In this document: positions 3,783-31,679 of the stretch, piece by piece
Layout of the letters: each line of letters begins with the position of its first letter
Numbering within the stretch: the first letter of the stretch is position 1
Source: a virus
Length of the DNA: 64,000 bases
IMG/VR virus record: IMGVR_UViG_3300045988_138996
Location: 64,001 to 128,000 of that record
Reading direction: 5' to 3' (one strand)
Position numbers and translations under genes: made by a program
The notes under the pieces: generated by a model
Database searches by the model: none
Seen by the model: only the letters and a program-made list of their open reading frames with translations
What the model was told of the DNA's origin: nothing

Positions 3783-5303
3783 ATGAAATTAGAACAAGAT
3801 TATTCTGTAAAAGAACTAATGGAAATGCCGTTAGATGACCTAGTTAAATTAGATTATCCTAAGTTATCTAAAGAAGGCAAGTTAGTCGTTATTAAACGAG
3901 ATCCAGTCATGTGGGCAAAGTCGTTTGTTCAGATTTATAATATCGATTTAGACAAATATGCTCCATGGACACCACGGTGGTATCAAGCCGAGATGCTTCG
4001 TGACAGAAGTCTTCGTAAAGTATTCCGATGTGGTCGTCGTTGTGTGACTGGTAATCTCGAAATTCAAATGCCATCGACTGGTAAAATTAAAACAGTACAA
4101 GAATTATATAATTCCCAAGAAGAATTTGAAGTTCTTGCACTCGACGATAATTACCAAGTCGAAATAGCACAACATGCTAAAGTCTATGATAATGGTATTA
4201 AACCAGTATATAGGCTTATGACATCGTCTGGTCGAACTATTGACGCCACTGATAATCACCCGTTCTTAACAGAGTTAGGATGGGCAGAACTTTCTAAATT
4301 ATCTGTCGGTGAAAATATAGCTATACCAGTTAAATTAAATTATTTTGGTGATAATAGTATAGAAGAAACTGAATTAAAAATTCTAGCACGTAAACTTAAT
4401 AAAGATAAATCTACTATTAAGGAAATACCAGAAGAAGTATTTACGTTAAATCGTGAAGCCTTATCTGTGTTTGTATCAGAATTAATTCAAGATTCTTTTA
4501 ATGAAAAAGAAAAGCGCCCTGTTAATATGCTTTATATTTCTAAAAGTAAAAAGCTTGTTAAACAGTTAGCACATTTATTGTTAAGATATGGTATCGTAAC
4601 AACATTCCGACAAGAAAACGACAAGTATTCTTTAGGATTCGTTAATAGTAAAACGCATCGACGTCTAAAGAAAAAATCTCATACTTCAATGTTCGCACTA
4701 TATCATTCTTATAAATATCAACCGGTAAATGATAAACTTAATAAAGTTTTCTTATCATATTTACCAGTTAAAGAATTATCGCCATCAGATTTTAAAAAAG
4801 TAAAATTCGATAAATTATCTGTCGAAGAATACTTAAAATCTAAAACTCTAAATAAAAACGAAGCTCGTGAATTTGCCGAGCTTTTAGGATTCGAAACAAT
4901 TTCCGATATATTATATGGTGATATATATTGGGATAAAATCGTATCGATTGAATATTTAGGTGAGCAACAAACATATGATGTTTCGGTACCACACTATCGT
5001 AACTTTATTGCTAACGATATTATTTCACATAATACTGGCAAAACAGAAACGATGGTGGTCGAAGCACTCTTTAATGTGTTTACACGTAAGAATTTTATTC
5101 ATATGTTCGTAACACCATATCAATCACAAATTCGAATGATATTCGATAATATCCGTCAAAAAATTGATAGCTCTGCACTTATTAAACGAGAAGTAACACG
5201 ATCGACTACTAATCCTCATTTATTAGAATTCTCTAATGGTTCTAAGATCGTTGGATTTACTTCTGGTGCCGGATCTGGTATGAGTGCCGCATCAATTCGG
5301 GGT
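3783..5303 (+). CDS. terL: terminase large subunit, exon 1 (includes an in-frame intein at 4041..5033)
   Basis: Removing residues CVTGNLE...IISHN joins FRCGRR to TGKTETM, a Walker A loop (GRRTGKT). The exon ends ...GMSAASIRG at ggt|aac. The ORF-track tail NIASPICSVMSIC* is read-through into the intron. Confidence 0.8.
4041..5033 (+). mobile_element. intein (331 aa) in the TerL P-loop, with a degenerate DOD/LAGLIDADG-type endonuclease region
   Basis: Starts with Cys (CVTGNLEIQM, block A). Has TDNHPF (block B TxxH). Ends TYDVSVPHYRNFIANDIISHN followed by Thr+1. The middle has LAGLIDADG-like remnants (VFVSELIQDSF; SKKLVKQLAHLLLRYGI). In frame, 993 nt. Confidence 0.85.
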
Positions 5304-5709
5304 AACATTGCCAGCCCCATATGTTCAGTAATGAGCATATGCTAAACAGGAGTTAAACCGGGGAAGAACTTTAAGAGCTCGTTAAACTACAACGTAATTA
5401 GAAATGATAAGCGTGAATGTTGCGAAAGCTGAAAAAATTAACGAGATGATAATATGGTTAAATCCTAAGTTATCGTAAACAAGAGTTTGTTCCGGTAGGA
5501 ATGTCCGTATAGGACAACCTCTAACGACTATCCGATTGCGTCGGAGTACCTTTTATAATAAAGGGAAAAATACCTGGTCCCACTATGTGGGATTAACATA
5601 TAGTCTGTTCACGTTCTGTAATGGAAGTGCTATGAATTAACATAGGTTATTTAAATGATAAACATTATTAAAAAAATGCTGGCGGGCTGATTCTGGTTGG
5701 AGTGTATAT

Positions 5710-5738
5710 TTGACATTTTAAATGTAATATAGTATTAT
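5710..5738 (+). promoter_or_regulatory. sigma70-like promoter for the intron 1 endonuclease gene
   Basis: TTGACA (5710-5715), 17-nt spacer, TATTAT (5733-5738). About 40 nt upstream of ATG 5776. Confidence 0.55.
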
Positions 5739-5775
5739 AATAATATAAATATTTTATAATACGAGGTACTTTAAA

Positions 5776-6726
5776 ATGGAAGAAAAACTTCAACGAATAT
5801 TAAATCTTTTATCTGAAGGAAAAAATTCAGAACAAATTTCATTAATTGTTTTTAAGACAAAAAATTGTGTTCAATTTAATCGATTTTGTTCTGAAAATAA
5901 TATTGATTTAAAACAATATAAAGCATTCAAATATATGGATAAAGAATGGCTTTCAGAACAATTAAAAAAATATAATAACAGTCCTACTATTTTGGCTAGA
6001 GAACTTAACTTATCATTAACTTCTGTAAATCGATATGCAATAGAATTTGGATTAAGAAAACCTAAAAAATCTATTGCATCAGTAAATCCTATAAATGAAA
6101 AATATTTTGATGAAGTGGATAATTTTAAAAAAGCCTATTGGCTTGGTTTTATTATGGCTGATGGTTATACTTATAAAACTCCTAATCGTGAAAAATATGA
6201 ATTAGCGATTAAAATTAAGTCTACAGATATTGATCATTTAAAAGAATTTGCTAAGGATGTTGAATTTCCAGAAGAAAAAATTGCTATAGGCTCTGGCAAA
6301 AGAAATGGCAATATTAATTATTATTGCCAATTAAGAACATATAATACACATTTAGTGACAACTGTTATGCATAAGCATAAAATTGTTCAAAATAAAACTT
6401 ATGTGCAATGTTTACCAGACAGTATTCCAAAAGAATATATCTCTGATTTTATTAGAGGATATTGGGATGGTAATGGCACTCTTAAAAAAGCCGGTTGGTC
6501 TGCATGTACAATGTCTTATCAATTAATAGAATCTTTTGTTAAATATTTTGATGAAAATAATATTGAATATACTTTAAGAAAAGAATTATGTAAAAGTGGG
6601 AACTATTTACATCTAATAAGAATAAGAAGTAAATCACATGATACTTTTGTTAAATTAATTTATCCTCCAGAAAAATATGCTTTAAAAAGAAAATATGATT
6701 TAATATATACGAGTCCACAGAATTAA
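5776..6726 (+). CDS. LAGLIDADG homing endonuclease with N-terminal tandem HTH modules (intron-encoded)
   Basis: Two LAGLIDADG motifs (YWLGFIMADGY; DFIRGYWDGNGT). Two N-terminal HTH-like repeats (NSEQISLIVFKTKNCV...; SPTILARELNLSLTSVNRYAIEFGL). Visibly more AT-rich than the flanking exons. Confidence 0.85.
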   Translation: MEEKLQRILNLLSEGKNSEQISLIVFKTKNCVQFNRFCSENNIDLKQYKAFKYMDKEWLSEQLKKYNNSPTILARELNLSLTSVNRYAIEFGLRKPKKSIASVNPINEKYFDEVDNFKKAYWLGFIMADGYTYKTPNREKYELAIKIKSTDIDHLKEFAKDVEFPEEKIAIGSGKRNGNINYYCQLRTYNTHLVTTVMHKHKIVQNKTYVQCLPDSIPKEYISDFIRGYWDGNGTLKKAGWSACTMSYQLIESFVKYFDENNIEYTLRKELCKSGNYLHLIRIRSKSHDTFVKLIYPPEKYALKRKYDLIYTSPQN

Positions 6727-7024
6727 TTTCTGTGAATATAACTTAATTGCTGGGAACCCCTTAGAGCTTTTGATACCGAAGTGTAACAATTCAAAAGATT
6801 GGGCAATCAGCAGCGAAATCTTATTTTTTTAAATAAGATACGTTCAACGACTATCCCTTGGCTACCGCGTTAAAAATTAGCAATAGGAGTACGGCCTAAG
6901 TAGGCGGGTGAAATTCCCTTAATTGGAAATGGTTATCTTTAATTTAATTAAAGAAGATATAGTCTGGCCTAGTATGAAAATACTAGAAGGATTTAACGGT
7001 AACGGTTAAATTCATAACAAAGCG

Positions 7025-7184
7025 TGGATCTCTCTCGATGAAATGGATTATCTCGGCGAAGGTGACTTCGATACGATTTATGCGTTGTGTATGGAACGTG
7101 ATACGATCGGTATGACATGTTCTTCTACACCGACTGGTCGTAGATCGAAATTTTTCGATATATGTACCAAGAAGGAACTCGGGT
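7025..7184 (+). CDS. terL: terminase large subunit, exon 2
   Basis: Encodes WISLDEMDYLGEGDFDTIYALCMERDTIGMTCSSTPTGRRSKFFDICTKKELG, i.e. Walker B (LDE) and an SST coupling-motif-like segment. No start codon or RBS of its own. The 3' boundary is uncertain (7179-7190). Confidence 0.7.
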
Positions 7185-7209
7185 TAAAATAAATAAATTA
7201 GGTTTTTTA

Positions 7210-7238
7210 TAGCAATTCCATCCAATATATGGTAATAT
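7210..7238 (+). promoter_or_regulatory. extended -10 promoter candidate for the intron 2 endonuclease gene
   Basis: TAGCAA (7210-7215), then TGgTAATAT (TG at 7230-7231, -10 hexamer at 7233-7238). About 45 nt upstream of ATG 7284. Confidence 0.4.
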
Positions 7239-7283
7239 ATAATTGTAGTTATTTTACATATATTAATAAAAGGAATTGTTACT

Positions 7284-8387
7284 ATGATTAATGAAGATGA
7301 ATTGAGAAGTAAATTAGAAGAAAAATCTGTAGCTCAAATAGCTAAAGATTATAATTGTTCAGAAAATACGATTAGAAGAGCAATGAAGAAGTTTGGATTA
7401 ATAAAAACTTCAAAGAAACCATATCAAAATAAAGAAATATTATTAGATATGTTGCAGACAAAAACAGTTCAAGAAATTGCAGATTATTTTAATGTTGATA
7501 ATCATACTATTTCTAGATGGATCAATAAAAATAATATATCTTTTAATGATAAAAAACTTTATAGAAATAAAGCTTGGCTTGAACAAAAATTAAAAGAATT
7601 TAATGGTTCTTTATCTGCTATATCTAAAGAAACAGGATATAAAAAAGACACAATGCTTGAATGGTGTTATAAGTTTAATTTAAAACACACACCTGATTTT
7701 AATAAAAAATATAATTTAAATATTGATTATTTTAAAAATATTGATTCTGAAATAAAAGCATATTATCTTGGTTTTGGTATGGCTGACTTTGGAATTAGCA
7801 AAGATTGTTATTCTTTTGAATTTAGATTAAAAAAAGATGATAAATATATTATTGAAAAATTAGCAAAAGAATTAAATTATACTGCTGATTTGTATCATTT
7901 TAAAGACAGTATTCGAGAAGGATATTCATTAAGAATTTCTTCAAAAGAAATATGTAAAGATTTAATTTATCATGGAATTGTTCCAAATAAGTCAGGAAAA
8001 GAAGTTTTGCCAAATACTGTTTCAAAAGAATTAATAAAACACTTTATTCGAGGTTTTATTGATGGAGATGGATATATTGGTGGTATAAAAGATAAAACTC
8101 TTGCTATTTGTAGTATGTCTTATAATATATTGTTATCAATTAAATTATTTTTAGAAAAAGAATTAAATATAAAAAAATATAAAATTAAACCAACATTAAA
8201 AGAAAGTGGAAATATTCTATATTATTATAATATATATGGTGATTCTTTTATTAAAGTTCTTGATTATTTATATAAAGATTCAACAATATATTTAATTAGA
8301 AAACATGATAATTATTTAATTCATTTGAATAAAGATATTAATCGTAAAAATAAAAAACTTAACAAGGCTCCATTATTAAGTAATTAA
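7284..8387 (+). CDS. LAGLIDADG homing endonuclease with three N-terminal HTH repeats (intron-encoded)
   Basis: LAGLIDADG motifs YYLGFGMADFG and HFIRGFIDGDGY. Three HTH-like repeats (SVAQIAKDYNCSENTIRRAMKKFGL; TVQEIADYFNVDNHTISRWINKNNI; SLSAISKETGYKKDTMLEWCYKFNL). Confidence 0.85.
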   Translation: MINEDELRSKLEEKSVAQIAKDYNCSENTIRRAMKKFGLIKTSKKPYQNKEILLDMLQTKTVQEIADYFNVDNHTISRWINKNNISFNDKKLYRNKAWLEQKLKEFNGSLSAISKETGYKKDTMLEWCYKFNLKHTPDFNKKYNLNIDYFKNIDSEIKAYYLGFGMADFGISKDCYSFEFRLKKDDKYIIEKLAKELNYTADLYHFKDSIREGYSLRISSKEICKDLIYHGIVPNKSGKEVLPNTVSKELIKHFIRGFIDGDGYIGGIKDKTLAICSMSYNILLSIKLFLEKELNIKKYKIKPTLKESGNILYYYNIYGDSFIKVLDYLYKDSTIYLIRKHDNYLIHLNKDINRKNKKLNKAPLLSN

Positions 8388-8606
8388 TAATTGCAAATCT
8401 TTTGAACTGCTGGAACGTCCGTTAGGAAGATCAGCAGCGAAATCTTTAATTTTTTAAAGAAACGTTCAACGACTATCCTCGTGGTGAGGAGTAGGGTCAA
8501 GCGACTCGAAGCGGAAGATATCCTTTTAATAGGATAAAGATATAGTCTGAGCTATGTAGCAATACATAGAAGGTTGTAAGTAGCGATTACAATCGTAACA
8601 AAACTG

Positions 8607-8928
8607 TCCAAGAGCATTATCACCCGACTCAACATAACCCCATGTGGTCGGATGCGATGGAAGAAGAATTTAGAAATACATACGATAAAAACGCATATGA
8701 TCACGAAGTATTGGCAGAGTTTGGTGTCGAAGAAGCCGGCGTATTCGATAAAGATAAAGTCGAAGAAGCGACACAAATCGACAACTATGCTTATTTCGAT
8801 CGAGATAAATATAAACCTGTTCGTTCTATGATGGATGATAGTAATGTAAAAGAAATACATATACTACCAGAAGGACGAACTACATATTATCCTAATGTAT
8901 TTAGATGTATGGGTGTGGATTGGGATTT
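8607..8928 (+). CDS. terL: terminase large subunit, exon 3
   Basis: Encodes ...FQEHYHPTQHNPMWSDAMEEEFRNTYDKNAYDHEVLAEFGVEEAGVF...RCMGVDWD, the start of the nuclease domain (GVD). The ATG at 8642 is internal. Both boundaries are approximate (start 8581-8607, end 8926-8929). Confidence 0.65.
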
Positions 8929-8958
8929 TAGGATCATTGGAGTTGATCGGAAAGTTTT

Positions 8959-8987
8959 TTGACAGATCTTTATTTTTGTTGTAATAT
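8959..8987 (+). promoter_or_regulatory. sigma70-like promoter for the intron 3 endonuclease gene
   Basis: TTGACA (8959-8964), 17-nt spacer, TAATAT (8982-8987). ATG at 9035. Confidence 0.55.
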
Positions 8988-9034
8988 AATAGTATAATAA
9001 ATTAATATTTTATTTTTAAATAATAGGAATTATT

Positions 9035-10009
9035 ATGCTATATAAAAATGAACAATATTTAAAAGAAGCTGTTAAAACAAAAACCAATAGTCAAATTGCA
9101 AAAGAGAATAATATTAGCGCAGATACAGTAACATATTGGCTGAGAAAATATAATATAAAAAAATATGAAGAAAAAGCTCCTTATATGGACAAAGCATATA
9201 TGGCTGAATTATACAATAAGTATAAAAGTGGAAATAAAATTTCTAAATTATTAAATTGCAATGAAAAAACAATATATGCTTGGTTGGAAAAACACGGAAT
9301 AGATACTTCAGAAACTGGTAGCCAAGGAGCTAGAAAACATTTTTATAATGAAAATTATTTTAAAAAAATAGACACTGAAAGAAAAGCTTATTTTTTAGGT
9401 TTTATACTTGCTGATGGATGTGTTTATTTTGGAACAAATAAAAATTCATATAGATTTCAAATGAATTTACAGGCACAAGATAGATATATATTAGAAGAAC
9501 TTCAAAAAGATATTGAATCTGATTATAAAATTCAAGATAAACAATTTGGATATAGTAAAAATGGTGATCCAATTTTAATTTCTTTATTAAAAATTAATTC
9601 ATCTAAATTATGTGAAGATCTAATGAATCTTGGAGTTGTTCCTAGAAAATCTATGAGACAAGAAATGAAAAAAGATTTAATTCCTGATAAGTTGATTAAA
9701 CATTTTATTCGTGGTTACTTTGATGGAAACGGATCTTGTTCTATAAGAAAAAATTCAATCTCTTTAGATTTTTTAGGTAACAAAACAATATGTTTGCAAA
9801 TTGATGAGTATTTAAAATCAAATAAAATAAATAAAAATGTTCTATATGGGAACAAAAAAAATGAATTATATGGTTTAAGAATAAATAATACAGATAATAA
9901 AATTTTATTATATTATTATTTATATAAAGATGCTACTATTTACTTAAAGCGTAAAAAAGAAAAATTTGACAAATTTCTCCAATGTAAAAAAAGTCCTCTT
10001 ATTAAGTAA
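9035..10009 (+). CDS. LAGLIDADG homing endonuclease with two N-terminal HTH repeats (intron-encoded)
   Basis: LAGLIDADG motifs YFLGFILADGC and HFIRGYFDGNGS. HTH repeats TNSQIAKENNISADTVTYWLRKYNI and GNKISKLLNCNEKTIYAWLEKHGI. Confidence 0.85.
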   Translation: MLYKNEQYLKEAVKTKTNSQIAKENNISADTVTYWLRKYNIKKYEEKAPYMDKAYMAELYNKYKSGNKISKLLNCNEKTIYAWLEKHGIDTSETGSQGARKHFYNENYFKKIDTERKAYFLGFILADGCVYFGTNKNSYRFQMNLQAQDRYILEELQKDIESDYKIQDKQFGYSKNGDPILISLLKINSSKLCEDLMNLGVVPRKSMRQEMKKDLIPDKLIKHFIRGYFDGNGSCSIRKNSISLDFLGNKTICLQIDEYLKSNKINKNVLYGNKKNELYGLRINNTDNKILLYYYLYKDATIYLKRKKEKFDKFLQCKKSPLIK

Positions 10010-10228
10010 TTAATAAGTAATAAACTGGTTGAATTGCTGGAATATCCTAAATGGACAATCAGCAGCCAAGTCTCTAGTAGAGAAAGGTTCAACGACTATC
10101 CTTGTATAAGGAGTAGGATCAAGCGATCCGAAGTGGCCAGCAACCTAGTAATAGGTCGAAGATATAGTCTAATCTATATAGTAATATATAGCAGCTTAAA
10201 AGCGTATTAAGTTTAGCGAACTTAATAG

Positions 10229-23837: not shown

Positions 23838-26800
23838 ATGGCGTACTCTTTCAAAGAGGAAATCCTCCGCGATCTTCCTGGTGTGTTTGTCGAAGTCAAT
23901 TCTGTAAAGAAAAAACTTTATGACGACAGCCAATTCGGTACAACTGACGCAGTGCTTTGTATCGGTACTGCATTCGATGGTCCTAACGGTGTTCCTGTGC
24001 CTATTTATGATCCATCTTATGCAACATATACTTATGGCGATACTTATAATCGCGAAACTAAACGTGAAGTAGACTTAACAGCTACATTGGCTGATGCATA
24101 TAATTCCGGTTGCCGTACTTTGTATGGTTTCCGTATCGGTGGTTCTGAAGCTCAAAAAGATTTTAAATTGCGTTCTGACGATACTCTTCGTTTCCGTGTA
24201 AAATCTCGCTTCCCATCTAACAAAGCTAAACAAGTATACTTTACTTTCGATAATACTCCAGGTCAAGAAGTTCTTACTATCTATAAACCTGTATCTAAAG
24301 CGACAACTTACGAACGTTACAATGCTATGATTGATAACGAAGAAGAAATGATTAAAGTTGAAATTCCTTTGGGCCTTATGGGTGCTGGCTTTACTGCCGA
24401 TACTCCTATCTCCGAAGTAATTCGTCATATCAATAACTTTCCTCGTAACAATGTTGTTACTTTGTCTATCGTAAATAAAAAAGGTCAAGATGTTACACTT
24501 CGTAAAGATTCTTACGAATTAGCTCTTGGTTCTATTTTCCCTGGTACATACTTCTTAGGTCGTAAACGCTCCTTAGTACCTTGCCGTACAGAAGTTCGTA
24601 CTCATGTAATCAAATCTAAAAAATCTCCAAAACCTTTCGGTTCCTTTACTGGTAAATATTTCCATACTCTTCGTATTAATACAGACGTTAATGCTGAATA
24701 TCCTATTTACTCTGTAAGTGATAAAGATTTGAACGAAGCCTTCACTACTGTAGGCTTGAAAATGTATACTCATAATGATTATCTTCGTACTCCTGGTGCA
24801 TCTGCATTAGCATTCGAAGAAGATGATAACGATTATGAAGATACTAATATGACTAACTTCCAAAAATACATGAAGTTAGGTTCTGGCTTTGCTATTACAG
24901 CAACAGCTTATCCTCGTACAAATTCTACTGGTCAATATTTGACTCCTCGTGTAAAAGAATCTGACGTTAAAGATAAACAATACGTAGTATCTATTGGTGA
25001 AGGTGCATACTCTGTATTGCAAAACGCTGATATGCCTTATCGTGTATTGGGCGCTCAAATTTGTGCCGATACTGTAATTGGCGGTCGCCTTCCTAAACCA
25101 AAAGATTTCTTAAAAGCATTCCCTATCGATGCTGTTATGGTTAATACTGTAGCAGGTGGTGCTCCTGTAGTCGATACCGAAATGTTTAAAATAACTCCTG
25201 TAGTTAATGTTAAAGATACTAAACATTCTCCACGTTCTTATAAATTTAGCTTTGCTAAAGTAGATAATGCTGCAGAAATTACTGACGAAAACATTTATCA
25301 AAACGAAGTATTTACAGTTATCCCTTCTGTAGCTAATGAAGCTGCTTTGGATTTAGATCATAAAACTTATGAAGCTGGTCAAACATTCTACTTTGAAGAC
25401 ACTAAAGAAGTGAAATCTATTACGTTCGATGGTAAGCTTCAAAATGCTGTTTCTCCACATCAAAAATTCAAACACTTCGTTACGAAAGATAAAATTATCG
25501 AAGCAGAACCAGCAACTGGTAATACTGTAACATTTAAAGAAATCGCATCTCTTGCTGATCTTCAATATGATACAGCTATGAATGGTTTGTTGACAGATGC
25601 TGATGCAACGACTGCTGCATACTATGCAACGACTGCTGCTGCTGCTACTGCAACTGCTGCTAATGCTAAATACGTATTACTTTCTGTTAATGACGTATTA
25701 TGTGTTGGCAAATATGATGCTGGCGCTGTAACTCCTATCGGTGAATATGACATCTTAACAGATAAAGATTCTCGTGACGATAAAGTCGTTACTTATATTG
25801 AAAACTTCGATTGCGTAGACAACCGTGTTATCATTTCCGTAACAGACTTCAACTATCGTACTGTAGCAGAATTTATTTCTGACTTAAAAGATAACGTTAA
25901 CTTCACTGATAACTTTACTGTGGAATTGACTGATAATGGTATCGTTGAAAAAGATGCTCTTATCGAAGAAGTGTTAGAACCTGTATTGGTTGGCGGCAAA
26001 GTTGCGTTAGCTACTTTGGCTAAAGACCGTACTATCGATTACGATTATACTATGCGTATTCCTTATCGTACTCCTGATAACTTCGCTCGTCAATTGGCAC
26101 AACATTGCTTGTATACAGAATTAAAAACTGCTCATACTCATGGTTTGATCGGTGTTGAACGTATCTCTGACTACACATTGTCTGGCGTCGAACAAAAATT
26201 CCAAGATTTGAATAGTTTAAATCTTAACCTAGAATTGAAACGTGGTAACGGTCGTTCTGTAATCGATGACGACGGTGCTCCTGTCGATATCGGCCGTTCT
26301 ATTTCTTGTACATTCTTCCAAAACAATGTACCAGTTTATAATTCTACTTACGCATATGTAGGTAACGGTGCTGCAGCTTATGCTGGTATGGTTTCCGCAT
26401 TGCCTGTAGAACAATCTCCTACGAACCAAAAAATCGGCATTTCTCCATTGTTTGAATTAACAGCTTCTCAATTATCTAACTTAACTTCTAAAGGTATTGT
26501 TACAGTTAAGAATACATTTACTCGTGGTTATGTAATTACAGATGGCTGTACAATGGCAGATCCAACTGATGCATTGTCTCGTCTTAATAGTGTTCGTATC
26601 ATCGACGCTGTTGAACGTGCTATTCGCCGTGTTTGTGAACCATTTATCGGTAAACAAAATACAATCTCCGTTCGTAACTCTATCCAAACAGGTTTGACAT
26701 CTGAGTTGAATAAACTTAAAGGTGTATTGTTATATGACTACTTATTCGAAATTGCTAATGACGTAACTGCTCTTCAATATACTTATATTGATATCAATTA

Positions 26801-26870
26801 CACTATTATGCCATTTAACGAAATTCGTCAAATCAATAACTACATTCAAATTCGTCAACCTGGTACCTAG
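23838..26870 (+). CDS. tail sheath protein (unusually large, 1010 aa)
   Basis: The N-terminal LPGVFVEVNS...TDAVLCIGTAFDGPNG fits the sheath N-terminal pattern (pGVyvee...a.vG.a..Gp). The C-terminal KGIVTVKNTFTRGYVITDGCTMA...LNSVRIIDAVERAIRRVCEPFIGKQN fits the sheath C-terminal domain pattern. Biased codon usage. Confidence 0.75.
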   Translation: MAYSFKEEILRDLPGVFVEVNSVKKKLYDDSQFGTTDAVLCIGTAFDGPNGVPVPIYDPSYATYTYGDTYNRETKREVDLTATLADAYNSGCRTLYGFRIGGSEAQKDFKLRSDDTLRFRVKSRFPSNKAKQVYFTFDNTPGQEVLTIYKPVSKATTYERYNAMIDNEEEMIKVEIPLGLMGAGFTADTPISEVIRHINNFPRNNVVTLSIVNKKGQDVTLRKDSYELALGSIFPGTYFLGRKRSLVPCRTEVRTHVIKSKKSPKPFGSFTGKYFHTLRINTDVNAEYPIYSVSDKDLNEAFTTVGLKMYTHNDYLRTPGASALAFEEDDNDYEDTNMTNFQKYMKLGSGFAITATAYPRTNSTGQYLTPRVKESDVKDKQYVVSIGEGAYSVLQNADMPYRVLGAQICADTVIGGRLPKPKDFLKAFPIDAVMVNTVAGGAPVVDTEMFKITPVVNVKDTKHSPRSYKFSFAKVDNAAEITDENIYQNEVFTVIPSVANEAALDLDHKTYEAGQTFYFEDTKEVKSITFDGKLQNAVSPHQKFKHFVTKDKIIEAEPATGNTVTFKEIASLADLQYDTAMNGLLTDADATTAAYYATTAAAATATAANAKYVLLSVNDVLCVGKYDAGAVTPIGEYDILTDKDSRDDKVVTYIENFDCVDNRVIISVTDFNYRTVAEFISDLKDNVNFTDNFTVELTDNGIVEKDALIEEVLEPVLVGGKVALATLAKDRTIDYDYTMRIPYRTPDNFARQLAQHCLYTELKTAHTHGLIGVERISDYTLSGVEQKFQDLNSLNLNLELKRGNGRSVIDDDGAPVDIGRSISCTFFQNNVPVYNSTYAYVGNGAAAYAGMVSALPVEQSPTNQKIGISPLFELTASQLSNLTSKGIVTVKNTFTRGYVITDGCTMADPTDALSRLNSVRIIDAVERAIRRVCEPFIGKQNTISVRNSIQTGLTSELNKLKGVLLYDYLFEIANDVTALQYTYIDINYTIMPFNEIRQINNYIQIRQPGT

Positions 26871-26892
26871 TAGTTTTTAATTAAAGAAGGAG

Positions 26893-26913
26893 GGGGCGGA
26901 TAACCTCCGCCCC
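26893..26913 (+). terminator. GC-rich hairpin after sheath (terminator or attenuator)
   Basis: ggggcgga (26893-26900) / tccgcccc (26906-26913). The trailing tract attattt is only weakly T-rich. Overlaps an aaggagg sequence. Confidence 0.4.
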
Positions 26914-26925
26914 ATTATTTAACAC

Positions 26926-27126
26926 ATGGCTTACTCTAATAACTCTGGTGTAACTACAGCGTCTGAATACACTCGTAGTTATACTACTTTTTCCGGCTGT
27001 GATATCGTAGCTACATTCGGTTCCGAAGTAGTAGCTGAAATTCAAGGTATTACAGTTTCTATTAATCGTGAAAAGGCTCCAGTGTACACCTTCGGGAGTG
27101 CAGAGCCTCGTTCTATCTCGAGAGGT
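26926..27126 (+). CDS. tail tube protein, exon 1
   Basis: Immediately follows the sheath. Homologous to the N-terminus of the intact paralogue at 30429 (YTRSYTTFSGCDIVA... versus YTRTYTSYSGCDIVA...; REKAPVYTFG versus QEKAPVRTLG). Ends ...SISRG at ggt|aaa. The track tail NSAFASPLQ* is intron read-through. Confidence 0.75.
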
Positions 27127-28063
27127 AAAAATTCCGCGTTTGCTTCTCCTTTGCAGTAATGCAATGTATAATTAAACTCTGTGATATGCTGGAAACCCCT
27201 TAGAGCCTTTAGTACCAAAGTGTGACAATCTAAAGGATTGGGCAATCAGCAGGCAGCGTAAGCGCCTCAACGACTATCCGTAAGGAGTACATCATAACAG
27301 CTGATGGAAGTGCAGAGCTCCCTTTTTCGTGTCATATGTGGCATTGCAAATAATTTTTCTATGTAATATAATAATAGAAAAGGAGATGATCACATATGAA
27401 GTATAAATATAATTTAGATTTTTTTAAAAATGATTCACCTGAAAAATATTATTTCTATGGTTTTTTAGCGTCAGATGGTTATATTTCAGATGATAAAATT
27501 AGCATTGGAATAAATGTTAAAGATAGAGAAATATTAGAAAAATTTCAAAAATTAATTTGTCCAGAAAAACCAATTTATGAAAAGACACAAACAAATTCTT
27601 TAAAATTTGAAATAACAAATAAGGATTTGTCAAAAAAATTAAAAAAATATTTTTCTATGATAACCAATAAAAAATATGAAGAAATCAGGTTTCCAAATGT
27701 TCCAGAAAAATATCTTAAAGATTTTATCCGTGGTGTAATTGATGGAGATGGAAATATCGATACAACAAAAGGATATCAAAAAGACAAAATTTATATTGGA
27801 GCAAGATTAAGAATATTAGGAAATAAGGAATTCTTAATAGAATTAAATGAAAAAACTAAATTATTATATCCACATAATACCAATGCAGTAAATAAAAAAG
27901 GAAAAGAAAATGTTTATGTGATAACATATAATTTTAAAACTGCTAGAGAATTATTAAGAATAATATATTATGATGGATGTTTATCGTTAACAAGAAAATT
28001 TAATCGATCTAGGGATGAAGATATAGTCTCAACAATTACGAAAGTTATTGATAAGAAAAAATG
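27127..28063 (+). mobile_element. group I intron 1 of the tube gene (937 nt), with a LAGLIDADG ORF between R and S
   Basis: The guide cgcgtttgcttctc (27135-27148) pairs with the exon 2 start aaacgcg (28064-28070, 7 bp) and the exon 1 end gagaggt (27120-27126, 7 bp including G-U at the splice site). P atatgctggaaacc 27184-27197, Q caatcagcagg 27243-27253, R cctcaacgactatcc 27265-27279, S aagatatagtct 28018-28029. The last base is G (28063). Confidence 0.85.
27344..27372 (+). promoter_or_regulatory. sigma70-like promoter for the tube-intron endonuclease gene
   Basis: TTGCAA (27344-27349), 17-nt spacer, TATAAT (27367-27372). Then aaaggag and ATG 27396. Confidence 0.55.
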
Positions 28064-28064
28064 A
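27396..28064 (+). CDS. LAGLIDADG homing endonuclease (short form without HTH repeats, intron-encoded)
   Basis: Motifs YYFYGFLASDGY and DFIRGVIDGDGN. The last ~16 codons overlap the ribozyme S element, and the TGA stop (28062-28064) straddles the 3' splice site. Confidence 0.8.
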   Translation: MKYKYNLDFFKNDSPEKYYFYGFLASDGYISDDKISIGINVKDREILEKFQKLICPEKPIYEKTQTNSLKFEITNKDLSKKLKKYFSMITNKKYEEIRFPNVPEKYLKDFIRGVIDGDGNIDTTKGYQKDKIYIGARLRILGNKEFLIELNEKTKLLYPHNTNAVNKKGKENVYVITYNFKTARELLRIIYYDGCLSLTRKFNRSRDEDIVSTITKVIDKKK

Positions 28065-28177
28065 AACGCGGTATTGCTGGTACTATTGTATTCACATTGT
28101 TCGACCGTGATGCCCTTGTAGATGCTCTTGCTGTTCGTGCAGCTAAAGCAGCTTATTTCCAACGTATCGGCGGTGAT
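28064..28177 (+). CDS. tail tube protein, exon 2
   Basis: KRGIAGTIVFTLFDRDALVDALAVRAAKAAYFQRIGGD aligns to the paralogue segment GPRTIAGSMVFAVLDKHVIYEII. The 5' end is fixed by guide pairing. The 3' end is approximate (28174-28185). Confidence 0.7.
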
Positions 28178-28531
28178 TTGGCGGTAGCCTAGTCGGCATA
28201 TAAAGTAATTTGTATGTCTGCAAATATATGATAGTTTGTATTTGCACCGATTGGATCGAATTGCTGGGAAATCCTAAAGCTTAAAATACCTTAATGGTTG
28301 TGAAAACAGAAATAAATTTTAAGATGATATATGGTTAAAACCTAAGTATTATAATAATGGACAATCAGCAGCGAAGTCGCAATATTGCGAAACGTTCAAC
28401 GACTATCTCGTGAAGAGAGTAGGATAAAATGCTTTCCGAAGTGGTCCATCCCATACAGTGGGAAATGATATAGTCTATGCTTATATGAAAGTATAAGAAA
28501 AACAAATTTAGCAAATTTGTGTATAAAATAT

Positions 28532-28560
28532 TTGACAATAATTAATATCACCATTATAAT
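28532..28560 (+). promoter_or_regulatory. consensus sigma70 promoter for tnpB
   Basis: TTGACA (28532-28537), exactly 17 nt, TATAAT (28555-28560). Then gaaagga and ATG 28590. Confidence 0.65.
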
Positions 28561-28589
28561 ATTCTTATAAACAAGAAAGGATATTATAT

Positions 28590-29678
28590 ATGGAAAAAAG
28601 ATTTTTATTACAAATATATCCAACAAAAGAACAAGAAAAATTAATACAAAGAACATTTGGATGCGCAAGATTCGTTTATAATTATTTTTTAGATTATAGA
28701 ATAAAAAAATATAATGAAGAAAATATTTCTTTAACTGCTAATGATTGTAGTAAAATATTAACTTCATTAAAAAAAGAAAAAGAATTTTTGCAAATTCCAG
28801 ATAAATATGCATTACAAAATGTATTAAAAGATTTAGATATGGCTTATAAAAGATTTCAAAAAGGAATTGCGAATTACCCAAAGTTTAAATCTAGAAGTAA
28901 TTATAAGACATATAGAACAAATCGATCTGGTAATAAAATTAGATTTGTTTCTGATAATATAATTATTCTTCCTAAGTTAAGAGAAGTTAAGTTTAGGAAC
29001 AATATTGTTCCAGATGGCGAAATTGTGAATGTTGCAATTATACAAAAACCTTCTGGTAAATATTATGCGTCTGTTCTTTGTAGAAATTGCAAAGTAAAAA
29101 ATATTGAAAAAACTGGCAAAAGTGTTGGTATAGATTTAGGAATAAAAGATTATATTGTTACATCTGATGGACAAAAAATTCCAAATAATCATTTTCTAAA
29201 AAAGACAATATCTAAAATAAAGAAAATGCAAAAAGAATTTGATAGAAAAAAAGATGGTAGCAATAATAAAGAAAAATTAAGAATTAAAATAGCTAAACAA
29301 TATGAAAAACTAACAAATGCAAGAAAAGATTATATTCATAAACTTTCTATGAAATTAATAGAAGAATATGATGATATTTGCATTGAAGATTTAAAGATAA
29401 AAGATATGGTTAAAAATAAACTTTTGTCTTTTGATATAATGGATTGTTCATGGTATGAATTACGAAGACAGCTTGAATATAAAGCAAAATTCTATAATAA
29501 AAGAATTCATATTGTTGATAGATATTTTCCATCGAGTAAAAAATGTTCAGTTTGTGGTTATAAAAAAGAAGATCTTTCGCTTGATGATCGATTTTGGACT
29601 TGTCCAGATTGTAATACCACTCATGATAGAGATATAAATGCAGCTAAAAATATTCTTAAAGAAGGAATGAAAAATTAA
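28590..29678 (+). CDS. tnpB: TnpB (IS200/IS605-family OrfB, RuvC-type RNA-guided nuclease), intron-encoded
   Basis: 362 aa. OrfB N-terminal pattern (LLQIYPTKEQEKLIQRTFGCARFVYNYFL). RuvC I GIDLGIKDY (D at 29133-29135). RuvC II ICIEDLKIKDM (E at 29385-29387). Zinc ribbon CSVCGY...CPDCN. RuvC III HDRDINAAKNI (D at 29631-29633). No tnpA anywhere in the window. Confidence 0.9.
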   Translation: MEKRFLLQIYPTKEQEKLIQRTFGCARFVYNYFLDYRIKKYNEENISLTANDCSKILTSLKKEKEFLQIPDKYALQNVLKDLDMAYKRFQKGIANYPKFKSRSNYKTYRTNRSGNKIRFVSDNIIILPKLREVKFRNNIVPDGEIVNVAIIQKPSGKYYASVLCRNCKVKNIEKTGKSVGIDLGIKDYIVTSDGQKIPNNHFLKKTISKIKKMQKEFDRKKDGSNNKEKLRIKIAKQYEKLTNARKDYIHKLSMKLIEEYDDICIEDLKIKDMVKNKLLSFDIMDCSWYELRRQLEYKAKFYNKRIHIVDRYFPSSKKCSVCGYKKEDLSLDDRFWTCPDCNTTHDRDINAAKNILKEGMKN

Positions 29679-29774
29679 TTATTGTTGAACCGCAGGAATT
29701 GCGGAGATTGTCTTGAGACGTTTATCGTCAATAGAAATTTTATTTTATAAAAAATTCAGATTAACTATCAACCG
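29600..29774 (+). ncRNA. candidate omega-RNA (reRNA) scaffold overlapping the tnpB 3' end and the intron 3' end
   Basis: By analogy with IS200/605 elements, where the guide RNA scaffold spans the tnpB 3' end to the element right end. Local hairpins: ccgca (29690-29694) / tgcgg (29700-29704) and gacg (29717-29720) / cgtc (29726-29729). The extent is a guess. Confidence 0.35.
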
Positions 29775-30131
29775 TACACAATTACTGAATGGGACACAAA
29801 ATTAACTAACATGGTTGTTAATTCCTTGGGCGCTAACAACAGCAATAGCCAAGTAGCTTCCACTAACCCATTCAAAGTTACACAAAATGTAGCTATTCAA
29901 TCTACTCCAAAATATTCTGACGAAATTCCTCCATTCGACATTACATTGTCCTTTGCGAACGAATATGGTCAATCTGCAGTTATGGTTATCTATGGCTGTG
30001 AAATTTTGAACGAAGCTTCTAGCTTCTCTGTAGATTCTACTACTACTGATAAAGCTTGTACTTACATTGCTCGCTCTGTCGATTACTTGCAACCAGTAGA
30101 AAACAAATACTTGCTTGATAACAAGTACTAA
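29775..30131 (+). CDS. tail tube protein, exon 3
   Basis: YTITEWDTKLTNMVVNSLG...IPPFDITLSFANEYGQSAVMVIYGCEILNEASSF aligns to the paralogue LPNFDVTLSFANEYGRQSTISVYNCTIIDEGQIM. The frame is open from 29751. The ATG at 29811 is internal. The start is approximate (29775-29793). Confidence 0.7.
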   Translation, partial: YTITEWDTKLTNMVVNSLGANNSNSQVASTNPFKVTQNVAIQSTPKYSDEIPPFDITLSFANEYGQSAVMVIYGCEILNEASSFSVDSTTTDKACTYIARSVDYLQPVENKYLLDNKY

Positions 30132-30138
30132 TAAATTC

Positions 30139-30177
30139 GGCGAGGAAATTTTTTCCTCGCCTTTTATTTTTTTCTTA
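30139..30177 (+). terminator. rho-independent terminator after the tube gene
   Basis: ggcgaggaaa (30139-30148) / tttcctcgcc (30152-30161), followed by ttttattttttt. Confidence 0.8.
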
Positions 30178-30190
30178 GGAGACAATAGGC

Positions 30191-30439
30191 GTGAAAAAAT
30201 CTCAAGAAAATACTAATCAAATATTTCTGTATCTAAATCGTGGTTTACAAGATTACATTAATAGTTCTTTATTATCTGGTGAACATTCTAGTAATGTTAA
30301 GAAAGATATGGAAGAAATATGCTATAATATTATTAGTGAGCGTAATATTGAACTTAAAACGAACATTATTACGTTGATCAATAATAGAGTTCAACAATAT
30401 ATGAAATTATATAATTTAAAGGTGAAATATGCCAAATGA
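30191..30439 (+). CDS. hypothetical small protein
   Basis: 82-aa ORF with a GTG start after aggagac. Overlaps the next gene by 11 nt. Confidence 0.4.
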   Translation: MKKSQENTNQIFLYLNRGLQDYINSSLLSGEHSSNVKKDMEEICYNIISERNIELKTNIITLINNRVQQYMKLYNLKVKYAK

Positions 30440-31679
30440 TTTGTCTTTAGGTAATAAAGACGTGGTTCAAACCTCAAAGTATACGAGAACGTATACTTCT
30501 TATAGCGGGTGTGATATTGTAGCTTCTATTAATATTACGATTCCAGGTCAAGAAACAATTTCGAAAGTATTTGGGAGCCTACAAACATTCTCCTATAGTA
30601 TACATCAAGAAAAAGCTCCGGTAAGGACATTGGGCGATGTTAATGCTATCACGTATGTCGATGGCCCAAGAACAATTGCCGGCTCTATGGTATTTGCCGT
30701 ATTAGATAAACATGTTATCTATGAGATTATAGACGATGTATATAAAAAAGGCAATTATCAAAATAAACATTTTTTAATGGATGAATTACCTAACTTTGAC
30801 GTTACATTATCGTTCGCTAATGAATATGGACGTCAGTCTACTATTAGTGTGTATAATTGTACGATAATCGATGAAGGTCAGATTATGTCGATTAACGATA
30901 TCTTAACAGAAAATACATATCATTATTATGCGACCGATATCGATTATATGACAGAGTCTCAGAACTATTATACTCTTAATGAAAAAAGTATAATTGATTC
31001 TAATCCATGGTTAACAACTAATAATGCTAAGATTAAAACGCAAAATATTAAAGTACAATATGGCATCCCTGTATTAACATTATCTAAAGAAGGATATTAT
31101 TCTTTTAAGACATATATGGATGCTCTTAATAGAAAATATAAAAAGTTAGCCGATCAGTTTATGGGCGAAAAAGAATCTGAAAAGATGGCTCAGCTTAAAA
31201 AAGATTATTATAATCTTAGAACTGAAGCCGAACAATATTATCCTTCTCAAGCATTATTATCTAAGACACAAAAGAAAGTTCGTTTCTTAGAACGTAAACG
31301 TTTAAAAGTTAATAAAGAATACGATAATTTTAGAACATCATTATACACATCAAGACGTGACGTTCCTGATTATTCTAAGTTTAGAGTTAATGGTAAAGTT
31401 AAAAACGAATCTGAAATTCCGGACTATTCTAAATATAGATTAGATCCTAAAAAAGATAATTCTAACCTTCCTTCATATGATGACTTTAGAAAGAAAGAAA
31501 ATGATCGTCATGAGAAAAAAGATGATATTCCTGATTACTCTAACTTTAGAAAAAATCGTAATAAAACTGTTAAGGAAGAAGAAGCAACTCATTATAAATT
31601 AGATGAAAATGGTAACGTGGTTATTATAGATACACATATAGACAATAAAGGAGGCGACGATAATATTGAACACATCTAG
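30429..31679 (+). CDS. tube-like paralogue with a C-terminal repeat extension
   Basis: The N-terminal ~190 aa are colinear with the spliced tube gene (shared SGCDIVA, EKAPV, R.IAG..VF, FD(I/V)TLSFANEYG). The C-terminus carries four copies of [IVL]P(D/S)Y(S/D)(K/N/D)(F/Y)R at 31362-31550. Confidence 0.65.
   Translation: MPNDLSLGNKDVVQTSKYTRTYTSYSGCDIVASINITIPGQETISKVFGSLQTFSYSIHQEKAPVRTLGDVNAITYVDGPRTIAGSMVFAVLDKHVIYEIIDDVYKKGNYQNKHFLMDELPNFDVTLSFANEYGRQSTISVYNCTIIDEGQIMSINDILTENTYHYYATDIDYMTESQNYYTLNEKSIIDSNPWLTTNNAKIKTQNIKVQYGIPVLTLSKEGYYSFKTYMDALNRKYKKLADQFMGEKESEKMAQLKKDYYNLRTEAEQYYPSQALLSKTQKKVRFLERKRLKVNKEYDNFRTSLYTSRRDVPDYSKFRVNGKVKNESEIPDYSKYRLDPKKDNSNLPSYDDFRKKENDRHEKKDDIPDYSNFRKNRNKTVKEEEATHYKLDENGNVVIIDTHIDNKGGDDNIEHI

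Follow-up and report, generated by a model that had tools for sequence, protein, structure and literature searches.

Can an RNA-guided nuclease do for a group I intron what protein homing endonucleases do for others? This question is raised by a 64,000-nt stretch of low-GC (33%) phage DNA (IMG/VR record IMGVR_UViG_3300045988_138996, positions 64,001 to 128,000; hereafter the window), in which the tail tube gene is interrupted by an IStron, i.e., a group I ribozyme joined to a gene for the predicted RNA-guided nuclease TnpB. An earlier note on this DNA, made from the letters alone, suggested that TnpB has here taken over the homing and retention role. To judge from its sequence, the element is a group A IStron that has been minimised and no longer depends on TnpA; it sits in a virion gene of a jumbo phage, and there is evidence that it has spread horizontally in a site-specific manner. 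We consider it probable that the element splices out of the tube mRNA and owes its spread or persistence to TnpB-guided homing. Three aspects are new: the loss of both terminal hairpins in a clade that has kept the pseudoknot of its guide RNA, the purifying selection on tnpB, and the conflict between the phylogenies of the IStron and the phage backbone.

Boundaries of the Element

The tube gene follows a gene for a 1010-aa sheath-like protein and has homologues in the ~220-235-kb myophages Bacillus phage 0305phi8-36, vB_BceM_WH1, and vB_BauM_KLEB27-3, in the last of which the homologue is annotated as tail tube protein. It is split into three exons:

26926..27126, + strand: tube exon 1 (67 codons); fused to exon 2 it reads ...SISRGK RGIAGT..., uninterrupted in intron-less homologues
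27127..28063, + strand: intron 1, a 937-nt group I intron with a LAGLIDADG open reading frame (ORF) at 27396-28064
28064..28177, + strand: tube exon 2 (38 codons), ending GTGAT (28173-28177)
28178..29759, + strand: the whole IStron (1582 bp), with limits set by the empty-site junction
29760..30131, + strand: tube exon 3 (123 codons and stop), starting INYQPYTITEWD as in the relatives P0001, P0002, and P0004

The GTGAT at the end of exon 2 resembles the target-adjacent motif (TAM) of TnpB and also provides the U at the 5' splice site. The element is preceded by ...GGTGAT and terminates in ...AAAATTCAG before ATTAAC, so that the last base of the 5' exon is U and the last base of the intron G, matching the requirement of group I splicing. 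Intron-less relatives (88-96% identity) read RIGGD-INYQP-YTITEWD, with INYQP encoded at 29760-29774, and a survey of related phages for the empty site found it in L002 (between 6192 and 6193), L005 (between 6090 and 6091), and L006, where the homologue of 28177 is joined straight to 29760. Because of these proteins and DNA junctions the 3' end has to be G29759; of the limits given in the earlier note, the start at 28178 is retained, while the end at 29774 lies 15 nt too far. A junction at 29774, which would yield a protein of 223 aa, is ruled out since close relatives have five more residues, INYQP. Also ruled out is an intron ending at G28497 followed by TnpB on a separate insertion sequence, because the sequence past 28497 is not tube-coding and the empty sites lack 28178-29759 as one unit.

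Removal of the element would restore the tube ORF in frame, including the invariant RIGG...W motif, with a spliced protein of 228 aa and a predicted exon junction of GGTGAT to ATTAAC (GGCGGTGAT to ATTAACTAT). The same element occupies the same tube site in the related loci L008, L177, and L178, and the arrangement was found in at least five assemblies. The three exons show dN/dS (ratio of nonsynonymous to synonymous divergence) values of 0-0.14 across four IStron-bearing phages, i.e., strong purifying selection. It is, therefore, extremely improbable that the insertion does not splice and that the tube gene is a pseudogene whose function is supplied by a paralogue at 30429, even though that tube-like paralogue lies directly downstream and the P1 helix of the ribozyme is short: besides the selection on the exons, the restored RIGG...W motif, the conserved ribozyme core with its compensatory changes (see below), and the recurrence of the arrangement all speak against it.

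The paralogue itself (30429-31679, 416 aa) has a tube-like N-terminal part of ~190 aa and a long charged C-terminal extension with repeated IPDYS(K/N)FR motifs, and it diverges between phages much faster (synonymous divergence, dS, about 1.2) than the intron-bearing tube gene.

Ribozyme, Promoter, and Nuclease

Within the limits of the element the following parts were recognised:

28178..28497, + strand: group I (IA2-like) ribozyme, with P1, internal guide, and core through P9
28532..28560, + strand: sigma70-like tnpB promoter (TTGACA-17-TATAAT, 12/12), with the ribosome-binding site GAAAGGA at 28575-28581
28590..29678, + strand: tnpB (362 aa), a predicted RNA-guided RuvC nuclease according to Pfam and an alignment with ISDra2 TnpB
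29679..29759, + strand: right-end tail (81 nt), presumed guide-RNA (omegaRNA) scaffold and intron 3' end
29760..29775, + strand: predicted guide of 16 nt, formed by the start of exon 3 (ATTAACTATCAACCGT), deduced from IS605 TnpB biology (PMC10690162, PMC13565253)

The complete group I core that had been noticed in the first ~320 nt is borne out by a match of 28192-28497 to the full Rfam model RF00028 (positions 1-253; 56.3 bits against a gathering score of 50; E 7e-14 in a 351-nt scan). The tip of P1 is a trimmed hairpin (GGC-GGTA-GCC, 28180-28189), the internal guide is GUC (28192-28194), and a P7.1/P7.2-type insert and the Q/R/S motifs are present as in other IStrons. A gathering scan of the whole window with Rfam and an E-value scan of 3.7 kb reported neither this ribozyme nor intron 1. 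Since these wide scans missed a real ribozyme, absence from them is no evidence of absence, and intron counts based on wide scans of AT-rich phage DNA will be underestimates. The ribozyme is conserved far beyond neutral expectation, being 96.6% identical between the window and L008 while their synonymous divergence is 0.35, and nine of its stem pairs show compensatory changes, nearly all of them from L177. RNAalifold applied to the four clade members (window, L008, L177, and L178) recovered the peripheral helices; the canonical P3/P7 core was not reproduced. No P10 pairing with exon 3 was found, and its conservation is not expected because the 3' exons of IStrons are arbitrary. Between P9 and the tnpB promoter lies a perfect 8-bp hairpin (ACAAATTT-AGC-AAATTTGT, 28502-28520), identical in L008, which could be an extension of P9 or a transcript boundary.

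The perfect promoter and the intact nuclease gene reported earlier were both confirmed. The promoter is the sole 12/12 site in 26800-30300, where ~0.01 such sites are expected by chance (an estimate from base composition). Its 92-nt spacer has no substitution in either L008 (one inserted base; 97.8% identical to the window) or L178, and promoters of at least 11/12 occur at the equivalent position in ten other IStrons. The tnpB ORF matches the Pfam domains HTH_OrfB_IS605, OrfB_IS605, and Cas12f1-like_TNB, and its product aligns end to end with ISDra2 TnpB (8bf8/8exa; E 1.2e-77). Residues D182, E266, and D348 lie opposite the catalytic D191, E278, and D361 of ISDra2 TnpB, and the four cysteines of the zinc ribbon (C319, C322, C338, and C341) do not vary. 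The protein is 94-95% identical to the TnpB of L008 and L178, 78% to that of L177, and 48-50% to the copies in C. difficile; beyond the clade, the protein database held no further TnpB with more than 54% identity.

In the definition of Tourasse 2014 (PMC4227781), a group A IStron has a 5' IA2 ribozyme and 3' IS200/IS605 ORFs, is inserted after TTGAT, ATTAT, or TTTAT, and has a TCAG terminus. Ribozyme, TnpB, ends that coincide with the splice sites, and the TCAG terminus (TCCAG in L177) are all present in the window, with GTGAT as the flank instead. The IStron identity given in the earlier note therefore stands: on its sequence features the element is a group A (IS200/IS605, CdISt1-like) IStron, a class that has been described before. 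The insertion motifs of IStrons are mostly TTGAT but also GTGAT (L005, L098), ATGAT, TCGAT, TTTAT, and ACTAT. GTGAT may thus fall within the range of the family, because the insertions at L005 and L098 follow the same motif.

Probable Loss of the Transposase Route

In canonical IStrons the tip of P1 carries a two-tier hairpin, the inner part of which (ACTCGTGACTTTAGTCGTGAGT-like) is the left-end palindrome of IS605. In the window only 12 nt separate the left end from the internal guide (TT-GGC-GGTA-GCC, with a 3-bp stem), compared with 50-56 nt in most other IStrons (39-56 nt overall). At the right end, all 33 other IStrons examined have a hairpin (CCYGYGACTTTAGTCRTGGGAGG-like) before (GG)TTCAG or GATGTCAG; the last 42 nt of the window element are A/T-rich and without a hairpin (folding energy -0.7 kcal/mol, vs. 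-5.9 to -17.5 in 21 others). Both losses are common to the window, L008, L177, and L178 and are confined to these four among 37 IStrons, of which they are also the shortest (1574-1583 bp vs. 1756-2205 bp). By these sequence characters they are a small distinct clade.

The TnpA transposase of IS200/IS605 elements acts on, and needs, subterminal hairpins at both ends. Because both have gone, the clade should no longer be a substrate of TnpA. The absence of TnpA stated in the earlier note was corroborated for the element and the 64-kb window, where a tblastn search with five TnpA proteins from IStrons gave nothing better than E 0.76; there is also no ORF between ribozyme and tnpB. Full-length Y1 TnpA genes do occur in the relatives L019, L026, L098, L126, and L146.

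Could the element still be moved in trans, by TnpA from the host or from another element? The enzyme might come from related IStrons that have retained a full TnpA, which occur in C. difficile and in viral contigs (L098, L126, and L146), and a TCAG end after an xTGAT-like motif is the footprint of a TnpA-type insertion. We nevertheless regard this as very unlikely, as in all four clade members a 3-bp stem is all that remains of the left-end hairpin and the right end has no hairpin, and no second copy at another site was found in the window, IMG/VR, or the JGI metagenome scan. Exact-pattern scans for the trimmed left end retrieved only the contig of L008 in IMG/VR and nothing in the JGI metagenomes, and all relatives with a TnpB identity of at least 78% occupy the same tube-gene site.

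The Right-End Tail as a Presumed Guide RNA

The hairpin-rich tail of "about 100 nt" that the earlier note had placed after tnpB does exist, although it measures 81 nt from the tnpB stop. It comprises a nexus hairpin (29690-29704, loop GGAAT), a second stem-loop with its apex at 29717-29729, a pseudoknot strand (ATTC, 29754-29757), and the terminal AG. The GAAT of the nexus loop is predicted to pair with the ATTC directly before the terminal AG. Equivalent pairing of four nexus-loop bases with the four bases preceding the terminal AG was found across 37 IStrons, mostly as GAAC:GTTC but also as GACA:TGTC and, in the window, as GAAT:ATTC. For 20 distinct sequences, 97.8% of the cells of nexus stem and pseudoknot are paired, a value that none of 500 shuffles reached (slid controls 26-41%); as the sequences are related and the pairing classes few, this covariation supports the structure without proving it. 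Compensatory changes inside the clade, seen in L008, L178, and L177, affect the nexus stem (CCGCA/TGCGG to CCGTA/TACGG) and the second stem-loop (GACG/CGTC, GACAC/GTGTC, and GATAT/ATATC). For the IS607 IStron that has been studied, the pseudoknot is needed for DNA cleavage, but splicing can proceed without it (PMC13521648). That it has been maintained here through a double change therefore suggests that the guide RNA is under selection.

The guide target, i.e., the TAM followed by ATTAACTATCAACCGT, is predicted to be present only in IStron-less alleles. The empty-site relatives carry GCGAT, GGGAT, or GTGAT and differ by 1-5 mostly synonymous mismatches in the 16-nt target; that these mismatches and altered motifs reflect resistance is speculation. 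The tail also gives a weak Rfam match (29684-29773; 22 bits, threshold 115) to the Enterococcus small RNA Ref70, a family that might itself be an IS605-type guide RNA.

A guide RNA that was inactivated when selection for efficient splicing in this highly expressed virion gene did away with the competing 3' stem-loop, with a TnpB that is non-cleaving, decaying, or repurposed, is in our view quite improbable. Disruptions of the guide RNA of CboIStron mostly raise splicing and abolish cleavage (PMC10690162), and the window has the shortest tail and belongs to the shortest elements of the 37. Such inactivation is, however, hard to reconcile with the compensatory substitutions in nexus, second stem-loop, and pseudoknot, with a promoter spacer that has no substitution in L008 or L178, and with the selection on tnpB. 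This gene is under purifying selection: its dN/dS is 0.09-0.24 at dS values of 0.15-0.64 among the four phages, and no frameshift has occurred in any of the four lineages.

Horizontal Spread at a Single Site

The backbone of the phages was compared with their IStrons by means of tube2 dS and sheath identity on the one hand and tnpB dS and IStron identity on the other:

window - L178: tube2 dS (backbone) 0.17; sheath identity 97%; tnpB dS 0.28; IStron identity 94.5%
window - L008: tube2 dS (backbone) 1.19; sheath identity 85%; tnpB dS 0.35; IStron identity 93.4%
L008 - L178: tube2 dS (backbone) 1.19; sheath identity 84%; tnpB dS 0.15; IStron identity 97.3%

In the backbone the window and L178 are sisters and L008 is distant, whereas L008 and L178 have the closest pair of IStrons. 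At the level of sequence this shows that the IStron phylogeny conflicts with that of the phage backbone and that the element appears to have spread horizontally at one site. A comparison of L177 (IStron present) with L002 (absent) gives ~97% identity across flanks of 3.4 and 3.9 kb but 83.7% in the 141 nt that separate the two intron sites, which is the pattern expected from co-conversion. The two introns move independently of each other, because in L177 and L178 the IStron occurs but the LAGLIDADG intron does not, and L005 has the LAGLIDADG intron without an IStron at the tube site.

These data have to be weighed against a resident, immobile IStron that splices and is inherited vertically or by ordinary phage recombination, with TnpB retained because it is useful in some other way, e.g., by cutting competitor phages without the element being copied, or in regulation. 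General recombination, rather than TnpB activity, as the cause of the horizontal signal is the main rival to homing; we hold a resident IStron to be unlikely but worth serious consideration. The single site, the eroded transposon ends, and the truncated guide-RNA scaffold are in its favour, as are the mosaic nature of phage genomes and the LAGLIDADG intron 114 nt away, which could drive regional co-conversion. Yet L178 has an L008-like IStron without that LAGLIDADG intron, the pseudoknot (required only for cleavage in the model system) has been kept by a double change, and the catalytic triad is intact with a low dN/dS. Moreover, cutting of IStron-less alleles is expected to cause homing by recombinational repair anyway.

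Proposed Mechanism and Significance

We propose that the IStron is transcribed inside the late tube mRNA, where the ribozyme would cut after U28177 and join exon 2 to A29760 using the terminal G29759. Splicing would thus restore the 228-aa tail tube protein, rendering the insertion silent. TnpB would be made from its own promoter inside the intron, and transcripts that stay unspliced across the 3' junction would supply its guide RNA, consisting of the nexus, the second stem-loop, the pseudoknot, and ~16 nt of exon 3. TnpB and guide RNA would then cut only tube alleles without the IStron (GTGAT followed by ATTAACTATCAACCGT), for example those of a co-infecting relative. Repair from the IStron-bearing genome would copy the element in, which amounts to homing, and alleles that are not cut would likewise lose out to the carrier. 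Peel-and-paste transposition would be closed to the clade, both TnpA-binding hairpins being gone and TnpA being absent. The suggestion of the earlier note that TnpB has assumed the homing or retention role would fit the selection on tnpB, the compensated pseudoknot, the loss of the hairpins, and the conflict with the backbone, each of which bears on it indirectly. The stronger proposition, that the clade shed tnpA and both hairpins and that RNA-guided intron homing, at one site of the tube gene, is now its only means of passing between jumbo phages, is tentative, and we would give it slightly less than an even chance.

Several observations weigh against TnpB-guided homing. The main doubt is whether a guide RNA without its last stem-loop still works: the tail has 81 nt compared with 101-147 nt elsewhere, and this third stem-loop is absent. 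P1 is just 3-4 bp plus its extension, and the 5' motif is GTGAT in the window and GAGAT in L177 instead of the canonical TTGAT. The horizontal signal could also have arisen by the usual exchange of modules or through co-conversion, with the LAGLIDADG intron 114 nt upstream as its driver. Only a single site is known for the element, so that mobility to new sites would be hypothetical, and splicing, processing of the guide RNA, and cleavage are all deduced from sequence.

If this stronger proposition is correct, the clade would provide a natural case of TnpB and a guide RNA as the sole mobility engine of a group I intron, in which TnpB does the job of the protein homing endonucleases in neighbouring introns. 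According to a 2026 OMEGA review, spread of TnpB-only IStrons by intron homing is awaiting experimental validation (PMC13565253). The clade offers a clean natural test, with the transposase route structurally closed and a single site in an essential gene. IStron-plus and IStron-less phages with ~97% identical flanks exist, and the sequence record shows movement between diverged backbones. As a naturally minimised IStron (1582 bp, with an 81-nt tail) the element also bounds the needs of ribozyme and guide RNA, and it encodes a compact TnpB of 362 aa with a short scaffold.

Relation to Other IStrons and Homing Introns

How widespread are such elements in phages? We surveyed 160 fetched loci encoding TnpB relatives, 80 from genomes and 80 from IMG/VR (L096-L175). 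Group I core motifs directly upstream of tnpB were found in 14 of the 80 genome loci (C. difficile, Pectinatus, and metagenome-assembled genomes) and in 19 of the 80 viral loci. In most of the viral IStrons examined a long ORF is restored across the junction, and the interrupted genes resemble those for tail fibre, ClpP, and terminase. An unannotated IStron of canonical form (CTTGAT before and ...GGTTCAG at the end of the element) splits the large terminase gene of the Clostridioides phage ES-S-0173-01 in GenBank. On this sequence evidence phage-borne group A IStrons seem common, and no description of them was found in the literature searched. With 19 of 80 viral loci being IStrons, RNA-guided nucleases may be a common and under-annotated means of intron mobility in phages. 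A Megablast search of the region against GenBank phages gave no match. One 208-kb contig, IMGVR_UViG_3300008742_000004, holds two IStrons (L134 and L168). The idea that all phage TnpBs belong to IStrons was rejected, there being no ribozyme motifs upstream of the genes in Geobacillus E3, Brochothrix A9, SPG24, iF6, and KKP_4049.

The novelty of the element was overestimated in the earlier note, given that its layout occurs in the viral loci and the Clostridioides phage. Moreover, the IStron class, TnpB-only copies, the mutual exclusion of splicing and guide-RNA formation at a shared 3' end, and two IStrons in C. botulinum phages have all been published (PMC4227781, PMC10690162, PMC13521648, PMC13565253). 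The window element shares with group A IStrons (CdISt1; PMC4227781, PMC10690162) the 5' IA2 ribozyme and 3' IS200/IS605 TnpB, insertion after a pentanucleotide ending in GAT, the TCAG terminus, splice sites that coincide with the element ends, the frequent lack of TnpA, and a guide RNA in the 3' untranslated region of tnpB that overlaps the 3' splice site. It differs from them in the deletion of both TnpA-type hairpins, its length (1582 vs. 1756-2205 bp), its tail (81 vs. ~117 nt), GTGAT instead of TTGAT, a strong dedicated tnpB promoter, and a ~230-kb phage host with one fixed site rather than many scattered copies.

The published precedent for IStrons in phages is provided by group B (IS607-type) IStrons, i.e., CboIStron and CbISt3/CbISt4, among them those of phages c-st and D-1873 of C. 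botulinum. They, too, have group I intron, TnpB, and guide RNA on a single transcript, which can be spliced or yield guide RNA but not both, with a pseudoknot that uses nucleotides of the 3' splice site, and in CboIStron most disruptions of the guide RNA increase splicing and abolish cleavage (PMC10690162). Unlike the window element they have a serine-recombinase TnpA, a GG/TGGG target, a CGG terminus, and G instead of U before the 5' splice site; the window element belongs to the IS605 lineage and not to that of IS607. With ISDra2 and other IS200/IS605 TnpB-omegaRNA systems it shares a TnpB that can be aligned from end to end, an intact catalytic triad and zinc ribbon, a TTGAT-like TAM at the left end, and a guide read from the right-end flank. 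ISDra2, however, has no ribozyme and has TnpA and intact end hairpins, and the known role of its TnpB is the restoration of the donor site after excision, not the invasion of a homologous genome.

Phage group I introns with homing endonucleases, such as the LAGLIDADG intron 114 nt upstream, resemble the window element in ribozyme type, in the essential host gene, in a presence that varies among relatives, and in divergent exon patches beside the site. In the window element, by contrast, the nuclease is predicted to be RNA-guided, with a specificity that comes from the flanking exon instead of protein-DNA recognition, and tnpB follows P9 with its own promoter instead of lying within a loop of the ribozyme.

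Other Introns in the Tube Gene and Elsewhere in the Window

Intron 1 has the Q, R, and S core motifs at 27244, 27267, and 28020, respectively, and its ORF matches LAGLIDADG_3 (E 1.3e-6); it is absent from L002, L177, and L178. It also contains GTGAT (27181-27185) followed by ATGCTGG (from 27186), an empty site that in L005 is filled by another, divergent group A IStron. In this related phage of 227 kb the IStron (L005:3331-5084) is nested in the LAGLIDADG group I intron of the tube gene, between CTCTGTGAT and ATGCTGG, where analogy suggests the J3/4-P4 region. It has a TnpB with 44% identity, a ribozyme that scores 85.7 bits with the Rfam group I model, and intact end hairpins, with GATGTCAG at its terminus. 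In this twintron the inner IStron would have to splice first. The empty site in intron 1 of the window has GTGAT and, by eye, matches 15 of the 16 guide positions.

A third intron site in the tube gene, at the homologue of ~27083, is occupied in L002 (4991-6051) and L005 (2386-3244). One of the intron ORFs codes for 265 aa and has a weak LAGLIDADG match, the other codes for 204 aa and has no match in Pfam, and the L002 intron lacks the Q/R/S core motifs of the other introns. Including the nested site in intron 1, the tube gene thus has at least four intron or IStron sites across the phage clade.

Elsewhere in the window, a very dense cluster of selfish elements occupies 3783-10191. The ORF at 3783-5345 contains an intein that has a LAGLIDADG domain, and the cluster also includes three Rfam group I introns (6692-6986, 8350-8569, and 9976-10191), which are adjoined by LAGLIDADG ORFs at 5776-6726, 7284-8387, and 9035-10009, the last two also with helix-turn-helix domains.

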